Part shown: piece by piece, positions 2,935-17,729 of the stretch | How positions within the stretch are numbered: position 1 is the stretch's first letter | How the letters are laid out: the number at the start of each line of letters is the position of its first letter | Sequence record: OK570374 | Source of the DNA: Escherichia phage UoN_LG358_1 | DNA length: 64,000 nucleotides | Reading direction: 5' to 3' (one strand) | The notes under the pieces: model-generated | Databases searched by the model: none | What the model was told of the DNA's origin: nothing | The model's input: the letters and a program-made list of their open reading frames with translations, nothing else | Made by a program: the position numbers and the translations under genes

Positions 2935-3114
2935 TTATGCTTTCTTACGCGGATTACCAAAAGCAGCATCATGAGCAAGAACTTTACGAGCACGAGATGC
3001 TAGCTGGTCAGCCAATGGATTGATACGAGAGTTAGACCCACGCTTGTAGCCAGCGCGTTTAGAGGTACCAACAACTTCTTTTACTGCGGTTTTTGCTTTA
3101 GATTGCTTAGCCAT
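2935..3114 (-). CDS. small basic protein (59 aa, Lys/Arg-rich)
   Basis: ORF below the 60-aa cutoff of the track, found by reading the - strand: MAKQSKAKTAVKEVVGTSKRAGYKRGSNSRINPLADQLASRARKVLAHDAAFGNPRKKA; own terminator. Confidence 0.45.
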   Translation of the reverse strand: MAKQSKAKTAVKEVVGTSKRAGYKRGSNSRINPLADQLASRARKVLAHDAAFGNPRKKA

Positions 3115-8789: not shown

Positions 8790-9920
8790 TTATTCGTATT
8801 CTTTTGGAATGAACGTTTTGTGGTTCTTCATGAACAGTTCATTGACCTTCTTGATAGTTGTATCATAGTCCATGTTGTCATTGAACATCAACATCAAAAT
8901 TGTAAACAAGAACGGTAAACGTTCAGCATCAGCCAGTCTCTTTGCCTCGCCTGCGTATGTTTTACGGTCTAAACCACGAAGTTTTTGATACGACGTAGAG
9001 ATAAACGACAATGAACGGCGCAGATAATCAAGATAAACTTCTTCGAACTTATTAATTTTCTTTAAAGAATAAGCATCGTTAGAAAAAAGTCCTTTGAGGT
9101 CATCAGAAGCGTTATTCACAATAACTTCAAATAGTCTATCATTTTTTGTGATAGAGTCCTTGGTGTGATGTAAAGCTGTGTACCAATCAGTCTTTAACTT
9201 AAATCGAAGACCATTGTCCATCACAAAAACATAACCTTCAATCCCTTCCATTGCTTTAATATCGGATACAAAATCTCCTTCCGGAATTTCATACGACTCT
9301 ACCAAATACTGACGAAGAACAGGGTCTTTAGCGATTTCGTTGTATGGAACATAAGCTCCAGTATCGTTTTCCCGGATATTCAAAAGAATAAGGTCTTTTT
9401 TCTGATAAGCGAGAACAATACGATTTTCAGGAGATACGTATTCAAAGTTAGCTGTAAAACCATCACGAGCTAGTTCAAGAAGTCTCCACAACAACGCTTC
9501 ATGAGTAATGCTAGTAAGCATAGCAGAAGACAAATAAGCTTGTTCAGATTTAAGCGAAGACTTTGATTTAAAGCGAAGAATATTGCCATCCAAATAGCTT
9601 GACACCAAAGAACCATCTTCTTTCTTCATCATATGAACCGCGTTAGAAAGATCGAGGTTCATTGTAAATGGAGTTTCATTTAAATTAAAGAATTTTTCCA
9701 TTGGTCTAGAAGCAATTCTTACTGGTACTCCGTCAATCATTTCAAACATAATGCCTCGACACTCTAAAGCATCTGGAAGCAACCAATCTGAATATGAAGC
9801 ATAGTTATAACTAAAAATTCTGTACTTTAGCCCAGACGGAGAAATATCATCACGATAAAAGAATCGTGATTCGTCCGTATCATTACATAAATTCATCAAA
9901 TTGTTGAATAGCTCTTTCAT
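8790..9920 (-). CDS. rnlA: RNA ligase 1
   Basis: 376 aa; MKELFNNLMNLC...YRIFSYNYASYSDWLLPDALECRGIMFEM...RPMEKFFNLNE matches recalled T4 Rnl1. Confidence 0.85.
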   Translation of the reverse strand: MKELFNNLMNLCNDTDESRFFYRDDISPSGLKYRIFSYNYASYSDWLLPDALECRGIMFEMIDGVPVRIASRPMEKFFNLNETPFTMNLDLSNAVHMMKKEDGSLVSSYLDGNILRFKSKSSLKSEQAYLSSAMLTSITHEALLWRLLELARDGFTANFEYVSPENRIVLAYQKKDLILLNIRENDTGAYVPYNEIAKDPVLRQYLVESYEIPEGDFVSDIKAMEGIEGYVFVMDNGLRFKLKTDWYTALHHTKDSITKNDRLFEVIVNNASDDLKGLFSNDAYSLKKINKFEEVYLDYLRRSLSFISTSYQKLRGLDRKTYAGEAKRLADAERLPFLFTILMLMFNDNMDYDTTIKKVNELFMKNHKTFIPKEYE

Positions 9921-10330
9921 GGTTTAGCCTTGTGTTGAGTGTTCCATGGAGGATTAAATCTTTTAATAAACATAGGTTCTTCAAGAGACATCGTCTCTAC
10001 CGACATTGTACCAAGCTCATTGGTCATGCTCAAGTTAAAGCATTGACGAGCCCAGAATTCAACTTTTTTACCTTCCATTAAAGCTTCTAAAATCTTTGCT
10101 GATTTTACGGAATCTGAAGTCTGGTCTTTTCTGTTTATAGCAGTACGATAATAATTTATACGCTTACGAAGATTTTTTGTTTTTCCAATATAAACAAGTT
10201 CATCATCAACAGCAATTGCATAAACTACATTCTTCTTATTGGGAACCTCTATAGTTTTAATAGAGGCATCTTCTAGTAATTCAAGCTCAGCGTATTTTAT
10301 AAATGAAAATTCATTAGCAATATCTTTCAT
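9917..10330 (-). CDS. denA: endonuclease II (GIY-YIG family)
   Basis: VYAIAVDDELVYIGKTKNLRKRINYYRTAINRKD...VEFWARQCFNLSMTNELGT matches recalled T4 EndoII; start moved to the internal Met because the track's N-terminal extension runs through the nrdB terminator hairpin. Confidence 0.8.
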   Translation of the reverse strand: MKDIANEFSFIKYAELELLEDASIKTIEVPNKKNVVYAIAVDDELVYIGKTKNLRKRINYYRTAINRKDQTSDSVKSAKILEALMEGKKVEFWARQCFNLSMTNELGTMSVETMSLEEPMFIKRFNPPWNTQHKAKP

Positions 10331-10333
10331 ATT

Positions 10334-10352
10334 AAAAAAGGGGCCGAAGCCC
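10334..10352 (-). terminator. intrinsic terminator-like hairpin (GGGC-UUCG-GCCC + U-run)
   Basis: hairpin with U-tract in - strand sense in the 28-nt nrdB-denA spacer. Confidence 0.5.
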
Positions 10353-10358
10353 TTTACC

Positions 10359-11537
10359 TTAGAAATATTTTTTGAAACCAATAATTACATTGTCGTCAAC
10401 GTCGCTGTCGATTTGAGCTACTAAGTAACTTGAAATTTCAACTTCCTGTGGAGCAGATTGTACCGCATCTGAGTTTAAGTATTCACGAATCCATGGAATT
10501 GGATGACGAGTAGGAGCATCGACTATTGGACATGGAAGACCACAACTACGCATACGAGAAACTGTCAAATAGTCAACAAAATCATGCAGAATTTTTACAT
10601 TCAGACCTGGCAACCCGCCATCTTTGAACAAGTGAATAGCCCATTCTTTTTCTTGACGGTTGATTTCCATAAAAATATCAACCGCTTCTTGTTCGCATTC
10701 ACGAGTAATCTGAACCCATTCGTCCCCATCTGCGCCTTGTTGAAGCTGACGAATAATATATTGAGTACCCTTAAGATGCAACTGTTCATCACGAGCGATG
10801 AACTTCATAATCTTGGAGTTGCCTTCCATTATTTCCATATTCTTATGGAAGTTAAAGGTACAAGCAAAACTCACATAAAAACGAATTGCTTCAAGACCAT
10901 TGATGACATGCAAACACAAATAAAGCGCTTTCATTAAGTCATGCTTGCATTGGTCTACGTAATCTTTAGCAGCTTGAACGAATTCTTCGTCATGGTCAGT
11001 GCCTTCATAAAACTCTAAATCAGCTTTAGAATTTTCCCAGTAACGAGTTTTACGAATAACATCATCATAGTAACGGCCAATTGATTCAGCTCGAGCCATA
11101 ATAGCATCATCTAAAACAATTTCATCAAAAATTTTGGCCGGGTCCGCAAACAGGTTACGCATAATATGCGTGTAAGAACGAGAGTGAATCGTTTCAGAGA
11201 AAGTCCAAGTCTGGTTCCAAGTATCTAATGACGGGTCAGAAATCAAAGCAGAAAGAACTGCAGCAGGTGCCCGTCCTTGAATACTGTCTAAAAGAGACTG
11301 ATATTTCAAGTTGTTAATAAAAATATTTTTTTGATGCTCTGGGAGTTTATCAAATTGAGCTCTGTCAGTCATCAAGTTAACTTCTTCTGGGCGCCAGAAA
11401 AATGAGAGCTGCTTTTCAATCAGTTCTTCAAATGTACGGTGACGCTGAATATCATACCGTGCTAAACCAAGACCGCTTCCGAAGAACATCGGTTCATTCA
11501 AAACATTAACTGGTTGTGTATTAAAAACTGTACTCAT
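10359..11537 (-). CDS. nrdB: ribonucleotide reductase small subunit, intronless
   Basis: 392 aa continuous ORF; R2 family features; synteny. Confidence 0.9.
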   Translation of the reverse strand: MSTVFNTQPVNVLNEPMFFGSGLGLARYDIQRHRTFEELIEKQLSFFWRPEEVNLMTDRAQFDKLPEHQKNIFINNLKYQSLLDSIQGRAPAAVLSALISDPSLDTWNQTWTFSETIHSRSYTHIMRNLFADPAKIFDEIVLDDAIMARAESIGRYYDDVIRKTRYWENSKADLEFYEGTDHDEEFVQAAKDYVDQCKHDLMKALYLCLHVINGLEAIRFYVSFACTFNFHKNMEIMEGNSKIMKFIARDEQLHLKGTQYIIRQLQQGADGDEWVQITRECEQEAVDIFMEINRQEKEWAIHLFKDGGLPGLNVKILHDFVDYLTVSRMRSCGLPCPIVDAPTRHPIPWIREYLNSDAVQSAPQEVEISSYLVAQIDSDVDDNVIIGFKKYF

Positions 11538-12262
11538 TTATTCACCTTTGCTCTTCCTCTTATCCATCCTTCAGGAATAGTTTCAGAGGATTCAATTAAT
11601 TTATTCTTAAACCCGTCGTTTATACAAATTTTACCACGGGCTCCTTTATAATTTCGTGGTTTTATTTTATCAAAATTAGGAGTAAGCGAATACGACCATC
11701 TGAATCCGTAAGCATACTGGAAATGGCCTTCAGCGCAATATTTGATATTAGAACCGTTCCCATTAACTGATTTAGCAGCTTCGGATATAGAAGGAAATGT
11801 CTCTATGAAATTACCGTCTAAATCAAATTTGTGTATAGTTACAGAAACTTCTTCTGCCCTTTTAATTAATGGTAATTTAATCTTTTCTAAAGAATCTTTA
11901 GAGTGCTTTTTGCCAAGCATTCCCTTGGGGTGTGGGTTATTAGCTAAATATTCTTTCATATATTTAGAGGATTCTTCGGAAAATCTCTCTCGGTGCCAAG
12001 CATATAATCTATTATTAATTCTATTTCCGGATTTATCGGTGCACATTAAAGTGATAGCACATAATAAACCGTATGTTTTATGAATTTTATAAAGCAACTG
12101 ATGCGCAATAAAGTGTTCTCTTGCGCTCAATGCCACTAAGTTATCTTTATCATCTGAACCACCCATGCATCGGGGAATGATGTGGTGATTTTCGGTATAG
12201 CCGATGAAAGGAGAGGCTTTTCGCCTCTCCATTAAGCTATCATATATTCTTTGATAGTTCAT
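11534..12262 (-). mobile_element. free-standing HNH homing endonuclease (mobE-like) between nrdA and nrdB
   Basis: 242 aa; HNH motif HHIIPRCMGGSDDKDNLVALSAREHFIAH; start overlaps nrdA stop (TAATG); paralogous to ORFs at 43627 and 55322. Confidence 0.8.
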
Positions 12263-14517
12263 TATAATTTACAAGCTGCACAGTCATCTGCTTTTGGTTG
12301 CTCAACTTCATAGTCATCTGTGCCAGAACCATCTCTAGTGTTATGATAATAGAGACTTTTTCCGCCAAAATACCAGAAGTAAAGTAGGTCATCAAGCATC
12401 ACGCTCATTGGTACTTTACCCTTTTCATAATTCTGAGGGTCATAGTAAGTATTAGCGGAAGCGCTTTGACACAAGAACTTGGTCATGATAGCAACTTGAG
12501 TTAGGTAAGGTTTGTTACCCTGTTTAGCCAATTTCCACGCATAATCATAAAGGTCTATGTTGTGCTCAATATTGGGCACGACTTGATTAAAGGAACCCTC
12601 TTTTGACTCTTTAACAGAGACTGGTCCACGCGGAGGTTCGATACCGTTTGTACTATTTGATACTTGGCTGCTTGACTCGCATGGCATGAGTGCAGATAAG
12701 GTGCTATTACGGATGCCGTAGTTAACCAAGTCTTTCCGCAGGCTCTCCCAGTCACACACATAATTGGGCGCTGCGATTTGGTCAATCTTTTTATTGTACC
12801 AGTCGATAGGTAATTCGCCTCTAGACCAACGAGTTTCTGAATAATATTCGCAAGGTCCTTTTTCTTTGGCGAGTTTAATTGAGGCTTTAATAAGTGCATA
12901 TTGTAATCTCTCAAATAATTCATGAGTTAAATCATTTGCGTCGGCATATGATGCAAAATTATCAGCCAACCAAGCAGCGTAGTTTGTAACACCTACACCT
13001 AATGCCCGCCGCTTCTTAGCTTTCAATGCTTCTTTTACAGGATAACCTTGATAGTCCAATAAATTATCTAAAGCACGAACTTGAACTTCTGCAAGTTCTT
13101 CAATCTTGTCTTGGTCCTGCCAGTCAAAATTACCCAACACAAATGCAGCTAATGTGCACAACGCAATTTCAGGGTCATCACTACCAACGTCTTTGGTCGG
13201 TAAAGCAATTTCTAAACAAAGATTACTCTGTTTAATTGGCGATGTTTCACGAATGAACGGAGTATAACGGTTCATATTATCAGTGAACGCTGGATACACT
13301 CGAGCCGTGCCAGAACGTTCTGTCATGAACAATTCAAACAATTCAAGAGCTTTGATGCGTTTCTTGCGAATAATTGGATTTTTTTCTAGTTCTTCATACA
13401 ATTCACGGAATTTATCTTCATCCCGGAAATAAGAATCGAACAATTCGCCATTAGCCACATCTGGACTGAACAGTGTGATGTACCCATTTTTACCGAGACG
13501 TTCCATCATCAAATCATTGATTTGCAGACCATAGTCTAGATGACGAATACGGTTTTCATCTACGCCTTTGTTGTTCTTTAATACCAACAGGTTTTCAACC
13601 TCAAGATGCCACATTGGATAATAAAGAGTAGCTGCACCACCACGTACACCGCCTTGAGAACAAGATTTTACTGCAGTCTGAAAATGTTTCCAGAAAGGAA
13701 TTACGCCAGTATGTTTTACTTCGCCATTACCAATTTTTGAGCCTTCAGCTCGAATCATACCGGCGTTGATGCCGATACCAGCTCGCTTGCTGATATACTT
13801 AATAATACTGTTACTTGCCGCATTAATAGAATTCAGTGAATCGCCAGCTTCAATAACTACACAAGAACTAAACTGACGAGTAGGAGTACGAGCCCCTGCC
13901 ATAATCGGTGTAGGCAATGAAATCTGTCGAGTAGATACAGCGTCATAAAAGCGAATAATATGAGCCAGACGATTTTCTGGTTCTTCTTGGTGTAGTGCCA
14001 TACCAATTAGCATGAATGCAAATTGAGGTGTCTCGTAAATTTTACCAGTTGAACGGTCTTTAACCAGATATTTTTCTTTGAGCTGCATCGCCCCAGCGTA
14101 AGTTAAATCAAAATCACGTTCGTGTTTGATTTTTGATTCCAAGAAAGTGATTTCTTCAGCTGAATACTTGGAGAGTAATTCTGAATCATATTTACCCTCA
14201 TTAACACAATAAGAAATGTGGTCAATAAAAGACGGCGGTTCGAATTGCCCGTACACTTCTTTGCGTAATGCGAACATAGCCAGGTTAGAAGCAACATATT
14301 GATAATCCGGTTCTTCTTTTGAAATGGAGTTTGCAGCTACTTTAATAGCAGCTTGTTGAATATCCTTAGTGCTGATTCCATCTTGGATATGGCTTTTAAT
14401 ACGCTCATATAATTCATATGGGTCAATTGAAGTACCTTCAGCGGCCCATACTAAAATCTTTTGAAGTTTGGATGGAATAAATTCCTGTTTAATTCCCGAT
14501 GATTTTACTACTTGCAT
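12262..14517 (-). CDS. nrdA: ribonucleotide reductase large subunit
   Basis: 751 aa; class Ia RNR alpha features including C-terminal CxxC tail; synteny. Confidence 0.95.
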   Translation of the reverse strand: MQVVKSSGIKQEFIPSKLQKILVWAAEGTSIDPYELYERIKSHIQDGISTKDIQQAAIKVAANSISKEEPDYQYVASNLAMFALRKEVYGQFEPPSFIDHISYCVNEGKYDSELLSKYSAEEITFLESKIKHERDFDLTYAGAMQLKEKYLVKDRSTGKIYETPQFAFMLIGMALHQEEPENRLAHIIRFYDAVSTRQISLPTPIMAGARTPTRQFSSCVVIEAGDSLNSINAASNSIIKYISKRAGIGINAGMIRAEGSKIGNGEVKHTGVIPFWKHFQTAVKSCSQGGVRGGAATLYYPMWHLEVENLLVLKNNKGVDENRIRHLDYGLQINDLMMERLGKNGYITLFSPDVANGELFDSYFRDEDKFRELYEELEKNPIIRKKRIKALELFELFMTERSGTARVYPAFTDNMNRYTPFIRETSPIKQSNLCLEIALPTKDVGSDDPEIALCTLAAFVLGNFDWQDQDKIEELAEVQVRALDNLLDYQGYPVKEALKAKKRRALGVGVTNYAAWLADNFASYADANDLTHELFERLQYALIKASIKLAKEKGPCEYYSETRWSRGELPIDWYNKKIDQIAAPNYVCDWESLRKDLVNYGIRNSTLSALMPCESSSQVSNSTNGIEPPRGPVSVKESKEGSFNQVVPNIEHNIDLYDYAWKLAKQGNKPYLTQVAIMTKFLCQSASANTYYDPQNYEKGKVPMSVMLDDLLYFWYFGGKSLYYHNTRDGSGTDDYEVEQPKADDCAACKL

Positions 14518-14585: not shown

Positions 14586-14611
14586 ACTAAAATGGCAGCC
14601 CGAAGGCTGCC
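14586..14611 (-). terminator. intrinsic terminator (GGCAGCC-UUCG-GGCUGCC + U-rich)
   Basis: hairpin followed by U-rich tract in - strand sense, upstream of nrdA. Confidence 0.5.
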
Positions 14612-14631: not shown

Positions 14632-14820
14632 TTAAGCTTCTATTAATACAACAACTTTAACTGGACTTCTGTTCATATCAATACTCAGAAATATTGATTG
14701 GATAATATAAAAATATCCATTAATCATTATTTGACCGCCTTCTTTCAATTCGCGACCAATATCACTTTCAGTTTCGGCAAATACTTTATCACCATGCTCT
14801 GATGTAAATTTAATAAGCAT
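14632..14820 (-). CDS. hypothetical protein (62 aa)
   Basis: ORF between td exon 2 and nrdA. Confidence 0.35.
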   Translation of the reverse strand: MLIKFTSEHGDKVFAETESDIGRELKEGGQIMINGYFYIIQSIFLSIDMNRSPVKVVVLIEA

Positions 14821-14903: not shown

Positions 14904-15215
14904 TCATACGGCCATTTTTCCTTTAATTACTGGGTGGCTTTCATAGTTTTTAAGAATAAAGTCGTTTATCTTCATATGAGTACAAACCCAATATAACTGC
15001 ATTTCAGTATCCCAATCTTCAAAACTATCTGGAAAATTAATTTCCAGTTCGCATAACTCTTTTGGCTCTCTGCAAAGAATTTCTTTACACTGTTCTGTAT
15101 GGTTCAAATATATGTGGGTATTGCCGCCAGTAAATACTAGATGCCCTGGTTTTAACCCAGTCATTTTAGCTATGATATGAATTAAAGCTCCGTAAGACGC
15201 GATATTAAATGGTAG
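14904..15215 (-). CDS. td: thymidylate synthase, exon 2
   Basis: exon begins CUACCAUUUAAUAUCGCG (LPFNIASYG) immediately after the intron-terminal G; C-terminal TS sequence. Confidence 0.85.
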   Translation of the reverse strand, partial: LPFNIASYGALIHIIAKMTGLKPGHLVFTGGNTHIYLNHTEQCKEILCREPKELCELEINFPDSFEDWDTEMQLYWVCTHMKINDFILKNYESHPVIKGKMAV

Positions 15216-16227
15216 CATTGTGTTCAGCTGAGGACGTTAATCTCAGCCCGGAATTTATCCAGCTGCATGTCACCATGCAGAGCAGACTATATCTTCATCT
15301 CAATGAGATGTCTATCGTTTCGAGCCACTTGGCCCTACTCCCTAAAGGGATAGTCGTTCGGCATTTAGCAATAAAACCAGTTCCATTTATCAGATTTTAC
15401 ACGGTATGTAACTAAGCCTGAAGAAATCTCAAAATGTCTAGCAGCATCTGCGGCGCATTCAAAAATAATACCATCACATGAAATTTTCTTAATATTAGAT
15501 GGCTTTCTGCCCTTTGCCTTGTTAGACAATATTTCTCGTGTTTCTTTTGAATGTTCTTTACCGAAGAACGGATTACTTTGTCCTGAACGGTCTCTACAAT
15601 TTGAACAAGTTTTAAATGCTGGGCTTATTCTTTTCCCGCACTTGCAAAACTTATGTTTTTCTGGGTTCCACCGTCCATTTAATTCACCTGGTTTACCATA
15701 AATTACTTTACGTCCATCAATACCAAGTTTTTCCATCTTAGCTTTAACAGTAGCAGCTCGCTTTTTTATAATTTCTTTCTTTAATGGATAATTAGTAAAA
15801 ACATCTCCAAAAGAAGCATCTGCGATGTTATAACCATTTTGTTTTGAATTTAGTGTTTTAATCCAGAAATTTTCTCGTTCAATAATTATATCTTTTTCGT
15901 ATGGAACTTCTTCCAATACAGAACATTCAAATACATTACCATGTTTATTATAAGACCGTTGGAGTTTTATAGAATGATGTGCATTATTAGATAAATCGGA
16001 AAAATGACGTTTCCATCTTTTATCAAAATCCTTTGCACTTCCAACATAAATCTTATTGTTTAAAACATTTTTAATTTGATAAATTCCACTTTTCATAAAC
16101 ACCTCTAAATTATAGAAGTATTTATTAAAGGGCGGTCCTACACATTTAGCACGGGATTGTCTACGAGAGAGGTTCCCCGTTTAGATAGATTACAAGTATA
16201 AGTCACCTTATACCCAGGCCTAAATTA
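15216..16227 (-). mobile_element. group I self-splicing intron in td
   Basis: interrupts TS coding sequence; intron 5' end reads UAAUUUAGGCCUGGGUAUAAGGUGACUUAUACUUGUAAUCUAUCUAAACGGGGAACCUCUC, near-identical to the T4 td intron start as recalled; exon 1 ends ...CUUGGGU. Confidence 0.85.
15365..16102 (-). CDS. intron-encoded GIY-YIG homing endonuclease I-TevI
   Basis: 245 aa; N-terminal GIY-YIG (SGIYQIKN...KIYVGSA), C-terminal ...KISCDGIIFECAADAARHFEISSGLVTYRVKSDKWNWFY as in I-TevI. Confidence 0.9.
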   Translation of the reverse strand: MFMKSGIYQIKNVLNNKIYVGSAKDFDKRWKRHFSDLSNNAHHSIKLQRSYNKHGNVFECSVLEEVPYEKDIIIERENFWIKTLNSKQNGYNIADASFGDVFTNYPLKKEIIKKRAATVKAKMEKLGIDGRKVIYGKPGELNGRWNPEKHKFCKCGKRISPAFKTCSNCRDRSGQSNPFFGKEHSKETREILSNKAKGRKPSNIKKISCDGIIFECAADAARHFEISSGLVTYRVKSDKWNWFYC

Positions 16228-16776
16228 ACCCAAGAAAACATCGACACTGCGTTGATACCACTGGAGGTCCAGAAACCCATTTCTTACGTTAAATTGATAT
16301 ACCATATGGCATGGTGGAAGCGCCATCTTAGAGAGCTCTAGAGGGTTCCAAGCTGTCACAATCTGCCTTCGGTCTGCCGGCATTTCTTTTATTCTATCAA
16401 TGACTAACTTCAATTGGTCCACGCCCATGAAATCACGCCATTGTTTACCATAAACCGGTCCTAGTTCACCGTCAGTATAACCCATCGAAACAGCTTGATT
16501 TTCATAATTATCATCCCAGACGGTTTTCCCTTCTGTTCGAGAACCATGTTGAATTTCGCGGAGGTCATCTACATTTGTTGAGCCAGATAAGAACCACAGC
16601 AATTCAGCAATGCACGATTTCCACGCGAGTTTCTTTGTTGTTACTGCGGGAAATCCTTCTTGTAAATCAAACCGAAGCTGAGTGCCAAATACAGCAATTG
16701 TTCCCGTGCCCGTACGATCATCAGTCTCATAGCCTTCGTCAAAAATGTGTTGAATTAGTTCTTGATATTGTTTCAT
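16228..16776 (-). CDS. td: thymidylate synthase, exon 1
   Basis: MKQYQELIQHIFDEGYETDDRTGTGT...LPPCHMVYQFNV (TS active-site region); in-frame UAA at intron start. Confidence 0.9.
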
Positions 16777-17123
16777 TGTTTTCCAACTTTAAAGAGAATT
16801 TCAGCGCCTTTCTTTTCAAAACGTCCTTGCATCCAAAGGAGACCATTTTCAACTTTCATATAACCAAGATTAATATAGTCCAACATTTGACGATTACTGA
16901 AAAACGCTTTAAATGTTCCATGGTTAGAACGTACATATATACCATTAGTGCACGCAGAGTGGATATTCTCCAACGGCGCCCTAACCTCATAAAACCCGTG
17001 AGGAATAGTAACATATTTCTCTGGATTTCGTTTAAACTGGTCAATCGTAGGGGCCATTCCATCGATAACCAAAGCCCAGTTCTTTTGCTTCTCTTCAACA
17101 ATTAAATCTAATTTAGCAGTCAT
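16773..17123 (-). CDS. hypothetical protein (116 aa)
   Basis: ORF between frd and td, 4-nt overlap with td start. Confidence 0.45.
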   Translation of the reverse strand: MTAKLDLIVEEKQKNWALVIDGMAPTIDQFKRNPEKYVTIPHGFYEVRAPLENIHSACTNGIYVRSNHGTFKAFFSNRQMLDYINLGYMKVENGLLWMQGRFEKKGAEILFKVGKQ

Positions 17124-17135
17124 ATTATTTCCAGT

Positions 17136-17729
17136 TTAAATTTTTACATAAACATCTTCTGAAATATTAGTAAGTTCGTCAATATTATACCAATGAGTCT
17201 CAACAAGTTCCATATCTTCACTGATATTCCATATAAAATCTGCTGAGAGTTTAATATCAGAATTTACACGGTGTTTTTTGCGAATAGTTGTGCATATAAT
17301 TTTATCTGCGTAAATTCTTGAATGCTCAATAATATGTGCGCCACCAATAACAGAATAATTGGCATCATCGCGTTGAATAAAACAATTATACCCAAAATCA
17401 TGCCCAGAAACTTGAACTTTATTACCTTCTAAAAATTGTTGAAACTGTGTTTCATTAATATAGAGCTCGGCAGTTTGTCCTGATTTAGTTTTTGCATAAG
17501 GACGAGAAAAATCTTGCACTACAATATGAGAACGTCCATGAAGTTTTCCTCTTAAGCTCATAAATGTTTTTGCACCCATAATAAGAACAGTATCTTTAGT
17601 TCTGGAAGCAAAATTTTGCATGTCTTGCTTGATATGTCCCCATGGAAGACCAGTGTTTAACCCAAACGCAAATTCATTTTTATTGTCGACAGTTTTAGTA
17701 GGGCAATACGCAAAAATTAACTGAATCAT
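17136..17729 (-). CDS. frd: dihydrofolate reductase
   Basis: 197 aa; DHFR-like N-terminus (IQLIFAYCPTK...GLPWGHIKQDMQNFASRTK); synteny. Confidence 0.8.
   Translation of the reverse strand: MIQLIFAYCPTKTVDNKNEFAFGLNTGLPWGHIKQDMQNFASRTKDTVLIMGAKTFMSLRGKLHGRSHIVVQDFSRPYAKTKSGQTAELYINETQFQQFLEGNKVQVSGHDFGYNCFIQRDDANYSVIGGAHIIEHSRIYADKIICTTIRKKHRVNSDIKLSADFIWNISEDMELVETHWYNIDELTNISEDVYVKI

Follow-up and report, generated by a model that had tools for sequence, protein, structure and literature searches.

The intron that interrupts the td gene of phage T4 and carries the gene of the homing endonuclease I-TevI is the founding example of self-splicing mobile introns in bacteria and phages. It belongs to subgroup IA2, the type of the T4 td, nrdB and nrdD introns, which is characterized by two extra helices, P7.1 and P7.2, between P7 and the 3' strand of P3, and by the peripheral helices P9.1 and P9.2. 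I-TevI nicks its homing site at a 5'-CNNNG-3' motif, 23/25 nucleotides (nt) upstream of the insertion site (PMC2988022, PMC5009752). In T4, an RNA hairpin blocks I-TevI translation on read-through transcripts, whereas a late transcript starting inside the hairpin frees the ribosome-binding site (RBS), and I-TevI represses its own late promoter through an operator that resembles the homing site and has no properly spaced CNNNG (PMC2988022). At the homologous position of a bacterial thymidylate synthase (TS) gene, the group I intron in thyA of Bacillus mojavensis encodes I-BmoI, a GIY-YIG endonuclease described as an isoschizomer of I-TevI (PMC5009752); I-BmoI is a distant sequence relative with the cleavage motif NNNNG. 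Here, the interruption of td in Escherichia phage UoN_LG358_1 (sequence record OK570374) is described, the window being the whole stretch of 64,000 nt analyzed from this record. With a probability of about 0.93, this interruption is the Gelderlandvirus orthologue of the T4 td self-splicing group IA2 intron, with an I-TevI-type gene in the loop of P6a, a reading carried by the anatomy of the locus, its homology to T4, the conservation and covariation of the RNA structure, purifying selection on the open reading frame (ORF), and a population pattern of lateral transfer.

The td gene lies on the minus strand of the window, as does every exon, ribozyme and endonuclease feature given below. Exon 1 (16228..16776; 549 nt, 183 codons, ending ...GTTTTCTTGGGT) and exon 2 (14904..15215; 312 nt including the stop, i.e., 103 codons plus stop, beginning CTACCATTTAATATC) are separated by the group I (IA2) intron at 15216..16227 (1012 nt, beginning TAATTTAGGCCTGGGTATAAGGTGACTTATACTTG and ending ...GAACACAATG). 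Joined, both exons provide 286 codons with no internal stop, and the product matches positions 1-266 of the 266 in the Pfam model Thymidylat_synt (PF00303; 325 bits) and aligns over residues 1-286 with the T4 TS structure 1TIS (E 3e-144) without a gap at the junction, an uninterrupted full-length ThyA match being obtained only once 15216-16227 is removed. The PPCH active-site motif is located in exon 1, while the conserved motif DVFLG|LPFNIASY straddles the exon junction between Gly183 and Leu184. At the 5' junction, read as GGT|TAA, the first intron codon is a UAA (16227-16225) in frame with exon 1, so that unspliced RNA would yield a 183-amino-acid (aa) N-terminal fragment. An earlier note on this DNA had described the 1012-nt segment interrupting the TS ORF, the 286-codon joined product, the opening UAA and the T4-like junctions (...CUUGGGU|CUACC...); all of these are present in the sequence, the strand being the point that had gone unmentioned, and the junctions are the same as in T4, at the same insertion site and within a homology that covers the whole intron. 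The window td region is colinear in alignment with T4 td across all 1873 nt, a match that, judged by sequence, is not due to chance, and 194 phage records each cover 80% or more of the td region (1921 nt with both exons and the intron).

The ribozyme was examined by drawing the td-type IA2 structure (P1-P10, including the P3/P7 pseudoknot) on an alignment of 16 distinct ORF-deleted cores, obtained from three phage genera and from metagenomes. Alignment of the window intron to the td IA2 model places the 5' half of the core at 16128..16227 and the 3' half at 15216..15378. The 5' half comprises the P10 strand (16222-16220), the internal guide sequence GCCUGG of P1 (16219-16214), P2 (16213-16196), the 5' strands of P3 (16189-16184) and P4 (16180-16175), P5 (16170-16160), the 3' strand of P4 (16156-16151), and the 5' strands of P6 (16150-16149) and P6a (16142-16134). 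The 3' half begins with the 3' strand of P6a (15378-15370), supplied by the last codons of the endonuclease ORF, and continues with the 3' strand of P6 (15362-15361), the 5' strand of P7 (15355-15350), P7.1 (15349-15340), P7.2 (15335-15322), the 3' strand of P3 (15316-15311), P8 (15310-15296), J8/7 together with the 3' strand of P7 (15295-15285), P9 (15280-15263), P9.1 (15262-15248) and P9.2 (15247-15227), the last intron nucleotide being the omega-G at 15216. Each of the 71 scorable pairs from P1 to P10 is standard (71/71); P3, P4, P5, P6, P7 and P8 are fully paired, the J8/7-P7 segment (AAGAUAUAGUC) equals the Rfam consensus, and the additional IA2 helices P7.1, P7.2, P9.1 and P9.2 are all present. 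P1 is formed by the last six nt of exon 1 (UUGGGU, 16233-16228), which pair with the guide sequence at 6/6 positions and leave a U(-1)-G wobble at the 5' splice site; in BEU50 and L021 (one of the loci recovered by pattern scans, see below), a change in the exon (UUAGGU) is accompanied by a change in the guide (GCCUAG). The first three nt of exon 2, CUA, are complementary to the intron UAG, forming P10, and the intron ends in ...ACAAUG, with an omega-G that is invariant in 16/16 cores. P6a, judged in each sequence by duplex folding, is a 9-base-pair (bp) duplex (16142-16134 with 15378-15370) closing the ORF-bearing loop; column counting was dropped for this helix because the lineages differ by indels there.

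Over 72 pairs in the 16 cores, 99.7% of 1145 cells are paired, compared with 30-44% in slid controls, i.e., with the 3' partners displaced by 1-3 columns. Moreover, both-sided changes are found in six pairs (two each in P8 and P9.2, and one each in P10 and P7.2) and in none of the slid controls. Several of these changes distinguish the window from T4: P7.2 and P9.2 carry compensatory substitutions, with GGGCC/GGCUC in place of GGGUC/GACUC in P7.2 (U-A to C-G) and GCUGAG/CUCAGC in place of GGUAAG/CUUAUC in P9.2, and P8 is a shorter and different hairpin, CAUCUC-AUU-GAGAUG against CAACUUG-CUUUAA-CAAGUUG in T4. Other differences from T4 concern the guide sequence (GCCUGG versus GCCUGA), P10 (3 bp, UAG/CUA, versus 2) and the intron length (1012 nt versus 1017 nt in the NC_000866 annotation). 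Relative to this T4 record, identity amounts to 71.7% in exon 1, 92.5% in the 5' core, 74.8% in the ORF, 81.9% in the 3' core and 66.3% in exon 2. What both introns have in common is the insertion after the GGT of Gly183 and before Leu184, exons of 549 and 312 nt, the opening in-frame UAA, the helix set P1-P9.2 with P7.1 and P7.2, an ORF in P6a whose 3' end supplies a strand of this helix, and an RBS-sequestering hairpin with a TAATAAATA box. Similarly, the other td introns of Gelderlandvirus and Karamvirus (Melville, CF-SP2, ABTNLPp2, EnC07, CGG4-1 and SEA1) exhibit the site and architecture of the window intron. The full IA2 helix set, the compensatory changes and an Rfam match on the 3' half (see below) together bear out the earlier identification as a group I intron in td.

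The ORF that is looped out of P6a (15365..16096) encodes 243 aa followed by a stop (15367-15365); the ORF caller extends it upstream to a GTG at 16102, the ATG being at 16096. Its product matches the Pfam families GIY-YIG (PF01541; 61 bits), I-TevI_ZnF (PF22635; 44), NUMOD3 (22) and I-TevI_DNA-bd (PF20987; 104), and aligns with the I-TevI catalytic domain over residues 1-97 (1MK0/1LN0; E 5e-52) as well as with the I-TevI DNA-binding domain (1I3J; E 4e-54). As in I-TevI, a GIY-YIG nuclease is followed by a linker with a four-Cys zinc finger and by a C-terminal DNA-binding domain of the minor-groove and helix-turn-helix type, and the residues G4-I5-Y6, Y17-V18-G19, R27, E75 and N90 are retained, together with the zinc ligands C151, C153, C164 and C167. 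The two proteins differ in length and C-terminus, since I-TevI has 245 aa and ends in ...WFYINA, whereas the window protein ends in ...WFYC. Thus, the description of this ORF as full-length and I-TevI-like holds in that the ORF is intact and encodes all three I-TevI domains, but the product, at 243 aa instead of 245 and 75% identity, is a homologue and not I-TevI itself. Across three deep lineages, the ratio of nonsynonymous to synonymous divergence (dN/dS) is 0.15-0.18 at a dS of about 1.0-1.3, which indicates that the endonuclease has long been under purifying selection. The exon junction of td is the predicted homing site, with a CNNNG motif (CAACG) at 16250..16254, i.e., at -27..-23 from the insertion site; as the window allele is occupied, cutting is not expected here. 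CAACG is found at -27..-23 in the window and in the intron-less phage S16, while STML-198 has CAGAG there, which is still CNNNG.

Upstream of the endonuclease ORF, a block conserved with T4 (CCCTTTAATAAATACTTCTATA) is found, and the region at 16119..16142, with a TAATAAATA box at 16127-16119, is homologous to the operator and late promoter of T4 I-TevI, an assignment made by homology to T4 only. The window operator stands in the same register as that of T4, and the region 16119-16142 contains no CNNNG at the equivalent cleavage distance, where AGACA is present instead. An RNA hairpin at 16095..16125 sequesters both the GAGG Shine-Dalgarno sequence (16105-16102) and the AUG of the endonuclease; it consists of 13 bp (-13.4 kcal/mol, z -6.7), 0/200 shuffles fold as well, and equivalent hairpins are present in T4 and Melville. 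A scan for sigma-70 promoters and terminators returned counts at shuffle expectation, T4-type late promoters being outside its scope. We infer the regulatory steps of endonuclease expression by analogy with T4.

Across the td region, the window differs from Salmonella phage STP4-a (Gelderlandvirus, Tevenvirinae) at one position only, 15790 (99.9% identity). On sequence grounds, the window is from a close relative of STP4-a and not from STP4-a itself, because its nrdA and nrdB are separated by a 0.7-kb HNH homing endonuclease gene, in place of the roughly 52 nt found in the STP4-a record. Within the genus, four states of td are found: no intron (STML-198, S16, UTK0003 and AKM_NP4), a 250-nt ORF-less intron (SEA1), an intron of lineage A with a 243-aa ORF (window/STP4-a and CGG4-1), and an intron of lineage B with a 245-aa ORF (Melville, CF-SP2 and ABTNLPp2, to which EnC07 of Karamvirus is 87% identical). 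The ORF identity between lineage A, lineage B and the T4 lineage is about 75% for each pair. Between both Gelderlandvirus lineages, exon position +3 tracks intron nt 6 (U-A in A, A-U in B), a covariation in P10; unlike the window, Melville, CF-SP2 and ABTNLPp2 have A at intron nt 6, paired with U at exon +3.

Similarity in the introns does not follow similarity in the exons. The introns of the window and CGG4-1 are 99.5-100% identical (cores 100%; ORF 99.5%, with a dS of 0.014), whereas their exons are 84% identical (dS 0.83), a difference of about 60-fold in dS. Conversely, the exons of the window are 97.8% identical to those of CF-SP2, while their introns belong to different lineages (ORF 76.7%), and the exons of the intron-less td of STML-198 are 96.9% identical to those of the window. 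Exon 1 of Melville is 97.3% identical to that of the window (97% for ABTNLPp2), but exon 2 of both is only 59-76% identical; the Melville intron ORF is 100% identical to that of CF-SP2 and its 3' core 98.6%, and CF-SP2 exon 2 is 97-100% identical to that of the window. This mismatch of exons and introns among Melville, CF-SP2 and the window points to a recombination breakpoint at the intron. Separately, the last 55 or so td codons are hypervariable across these phages. At the end of exon 1, 8 of the 25 differences between the window and STML-198 fall in the last 28 nt, all of them synonymous (Fisher p 1e-5). The exon sequence -18..-1 is common to all intron-containing alleles except BEU50 and L021, which differ at -4 with the matching change in the guide sequence, and the intron-less alleles differ there; exon 1 of the window and CGG4-1 is identical through -18, with the first difference at -19. 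Such a pattern is to be expected if an intron donor serves as the template for repairing a break at -23/-25, with co-conversion, and it also fits the requirements of P1, since UUGGGU pairs with the guide and the CCUUGGU of empty alleles would not. The discordant intron and exon similarities are a signature of homing, and the population pattern needs lateral transfer. Gelderlandvirus thus offers a compact natural series for the life cycle of a homing endonuclease, with empty sites, an ORF-less intron, two divergent endonuclease lineages and breakpoints at the intron.

The ORF-less intron of SEA1 (L007, 2550-2799) has 250 nt, with P6a reduced to a minimal hairpin (GUUC-GAAA-GAAC) and no remnant of the ORF, and scores 69.6 bits with Rfam; it is similar to lineage A at the 5' end and to lineage B in P9.2. 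In contrast, the short T4-type td introns of MLP2, PD112 and F1 still contain fragments of the ORF and have visibly arisen by deletion.

By this reading, td is most likely transcribed through the intron, and the RNA would fold into the P1-P9.2 core, in which exogenous guanosine would attack after the U of the U-G pair closing P1. P10 (CUA with UAG) would then align exon 2, and ligation of the exons after the omega-G would generate a spliced mRNA encoding the 286-aa enzyme, while unspliced RNA would terminate at the opening UAA and provide the 183-aa N-terminal fragment only. The hairpin over the RBS would keep the endonuclease silent on read-through transcripts. The endonuclease is probably expressed late from the promoter-like TAATAAATA box, with a start inside the 5' arm of the hairpin, and is probably autorepressed at the overlapping operator. 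In a mixed infection with an intron-less relative, it would bind the exon junction and cut at CAACG, 23/25 nt upstream, and the recipient would acquire a copy of the intron, along with a short stretch of adjoining exon, through double-strand-break repair.

Several observations weigh against this account. Since the majority of core pairs do not vary across the panel, the covariation support amounts to six pairs in related sequences, and the observed covariation score, reached by 0/500 shuffles, is not to be taken as a probability because of this relatedness. The similarity between operator and homing site (best ungapped match 13/20) is equalled by 58/300 shuffles and, thus, is not significant alone; it was dropped as an independent test of autorepression and kept only as homology to the T4 operator. 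Moreover, the endonuclease differs from I-TevI by T95S, Q158S, C39A and I86Q, all four at residues with a known effect on cleavage preference. We infer splicing and catalysis, the activity and cleavage position of the endonuclease, the timing of its expression, autorepression and present-day mobility by analogy with T4. Finally, a scan of the whole 64-kb window with Rfam at the gathering threshold reported nothing. A scan by E-value places RF00028 (Intron_gpI) at 15263-15440 on the minus strand with 42.6 bits (E 5e-9 for the region, 1.6e-7 for the whole window), below the gathering cut-off of 50 bits, and only the 3' half is correctly aligned, the 5' half of the model being forced into the ORF. 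The covariance-model check put forward in the earlier note thus comes out just under the curated cut-off in the window itself. This shortfall is attributed to the 732-nt ORF in P6a, which divides the model in two; scores above the cut-off are reached by td introns that naturally lack an ORF and have near-identical cores (PD112 73.8, SEA1 69.6 and MLP2 66.9 bits), and the match at td is the sole group I signal in the window. The empty scan is a limitation arising from the ORF insertion and no evidence against an intron. A search of genomes for group I introns therefore has to include a permissive or ORF-aware pass, since those that carry an ORF are missed when Rfam is run at its gathering threshold.

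Two other explanations have to be weighed. The intron could splice and yet no longer be mobile. The endonuclease would then persist only as an autorepressor or passenger, and vertical descent, repeated loss and ordinary homologous recombination between phages would account for the patchy occurrence of the intron in the genus. The existence of ORF-less or ORF-decayed td introns (SEA1, PD112, MLP2 and F1) indicates that the endonuclease gene is often lost, and the swap of lineages within near-identical exons of the window and CF-SP2 is impossible by cleavage of an occupied site, needing either flanking recombination or loss and regain. Nevertheless, the window ORF is intact, with all catalytic residues and zinc ligands and the low dN/dS given above, and the contrast between an ORF dS of 0.014 and an exon dS of 0.83 to CGG4-1 requires that the intron, specifically, was transferred laterally not long ago. 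The tract of identity ends about 15-19 nt from the splice sites, and the -18..-1 exon sequence is common to intron alleles and different in intron-less ones, as predicted if a break at -23/-25 leads to co-conversion. An immobile intron is, on balance, improbable.

The other explanation is that td is truly split, the intervening RNA no longer splicing and two polypeptides of 183 and 104 aa being translated independently. This is how the gene appears in the records of STP4-a, CF-SP2, ABTNLPp2, SEA1 and EnC07, which list two coding sequences (CDS), and an ATG at 15218-15216 does open a 104-aa ORF in frame with exon 2. However, this ATG is made up of the last three nt of the intron (..AAUG), ending in the omega-G, and is conserved in every td intron including that of T4, whose splicing is established. 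No Shine-Dalgarno-like sequence precedes it (CAGCUGAACACAAUG), all ribozyme helices are intact and have been kept by compensatory changes, and the break falls in the middle of the DVFLG|LPFNIASY core, with only the joined product matching TS from end to end. Moreover, the records of Melville, CGG4-1 and Paracelsus annotate a join. A truly split td is very unlikely, and the mobile self-splicing intron is retained as the explanation of this locus.

As to annotation, the STP4-a record contains two CDS named 'thymidylate synthase' and a homing endonuclease, with neither a join nor an intron feature, and its GenBank copy (KJ000058) names the endonuclease 'I-TevI homing endonuclease'. In the records behind L001, L005, L006, L007, L008, L011 and L016, td is likewise given as two independent CDS, the second starting from the AUG at the intron end. 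The two-CDS form of td is a recurrent annotation error, and one joined CDS with an intron feature should be the correct form. The td intron with an I-TevI-type gene is an already known element of a textbook kind, as shown by the GenBank annotation of Melville and CGG4-1 and by the remark on I-TevI homologues in related T4-like enteric phages in PMC5009752. Within the library searched, no paper dealing specifically with introns in Gelderlandvirus was found, and the paper on STP4-a is silent on the intron. The locus therefore carries little weight as a discovery; of residual interest are the annotation errors, the failure of Rfam in gathering mode on ORF-bearing introns, the presence of all stages of the homing cycle in one genus, and natural I-TevI variants at positions that modulate specificity.

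Regarding these variants, directed evolution of I-TevI has yielded substitutions at positions 95, 158, 39 and 86 that alter the CNNNG preference (Roy et al., PMC5009752), and the study also notes T95S in homologues of I-TevI encoded by the td introns of related enteric T4-like phages, for which CAACG is the predicted cleavage site (PMC5009752). It is conceivable, though rather unlikely, that the endonuclease of the window/CGG4-1 lineage is more than a copy of I-TevI and has a cleavage preference shifted or relaxed by Ser95, Ser158, Ala39 and Gln86. The dense synonymous changes that intron-less relatives carry in the final 28 nt of exon 1 (e.g., CAGAG for CAACG in STML-198) would then reflect a contest between target site and endonuclease in Gelderlandvirus. 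If so, two intron lineages about 75% identical in their ORFs, an ORF-less intron and empty sites would cycle through near-identical td genes. The natural I-TevI variants found here are of interest for Tev-based genome editors.

Pattern scans based on P3-P5 for diverse td introns returned three loci in viral contigs and five in metagenome contigs, of which only three usable new cores were obtained (L020/L023, L021 and L024). An identity of 61% obtained for the 3' core of EnC07 is an artefact of an ORF that reads further into the core, the aligned cores being very similar. L022 (Ga0180732_1015345, 2296-2688), from a metagenome assembly, has a td intron identical to that of T4 except that a TCTAGA (XbaI) scar takes the place of the ORF, and its flanks (...CTCTTGGGT | CCATATGAATCC...) are non-td exons; considered as a td-type intron in another gene, it was rejected, since it looks like an engineered T4 td cassette, i.e., vector DNA. 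The non-td 'exon 1' of L024 (OGVK01004061.1, 1-700) was also discarded, as it starts with an Illumina adapter and is fused to an EnC07-type td intron, an assembly chimera. In L019 (IMGVR_UViG_3300030021_000013, about 3050-3110), a T4-like contig, a deletion that starts near intron nt 150 and ends 60 nt short of the td stop codon takes out the 3' half of the intron and most of exon 2, and the contig is either a td-defective variant or a misassembly. None of L019, L022 and L024 gives evidence for td-type introns in other genes.

In the neighborhood of td, a 116-aa ORF without a Pfam match (16773-17123, minus strand) lies between frd (17136-17729) and td and overlaps the td start (ATGA); it is listed as hypothetical in Gelderlandvirus and Karamvirus relatives, whereas in T4 frd directly abuts td. 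On the other side, td is followed by a 62-aa ORF (14632-14820), 3' of which, just ahead of nrdA, stands a strong terminator-like hairpin with a T-rich tail (GGCAGCC-TTCG-GGCTGCC; 14594-14611, minus strand). The HNH gene mentioned above (11534-12262, minus strand) encodes a 242-aa free-standing homing endonuclease of the HNH + NUMOD1 type, similar to MobE/MobB, between nrdA (12262-14517) and nrdB (10359-11537), and is carried at 99% identity by S16, STML-198, ABTNLPp2 and Melville and at 97.8% by CGG4-1. Between nrdB and an RNA ligase gene (8790-9920), a 154-aa ORF with a TTG start (9917-10381, minus strand) gives a partial GIY-YIG match (E 1e-5), and may represent a homing endonuclease that is seg-like or truncated; if so, about 6 kb would hold three endonuclease genes.

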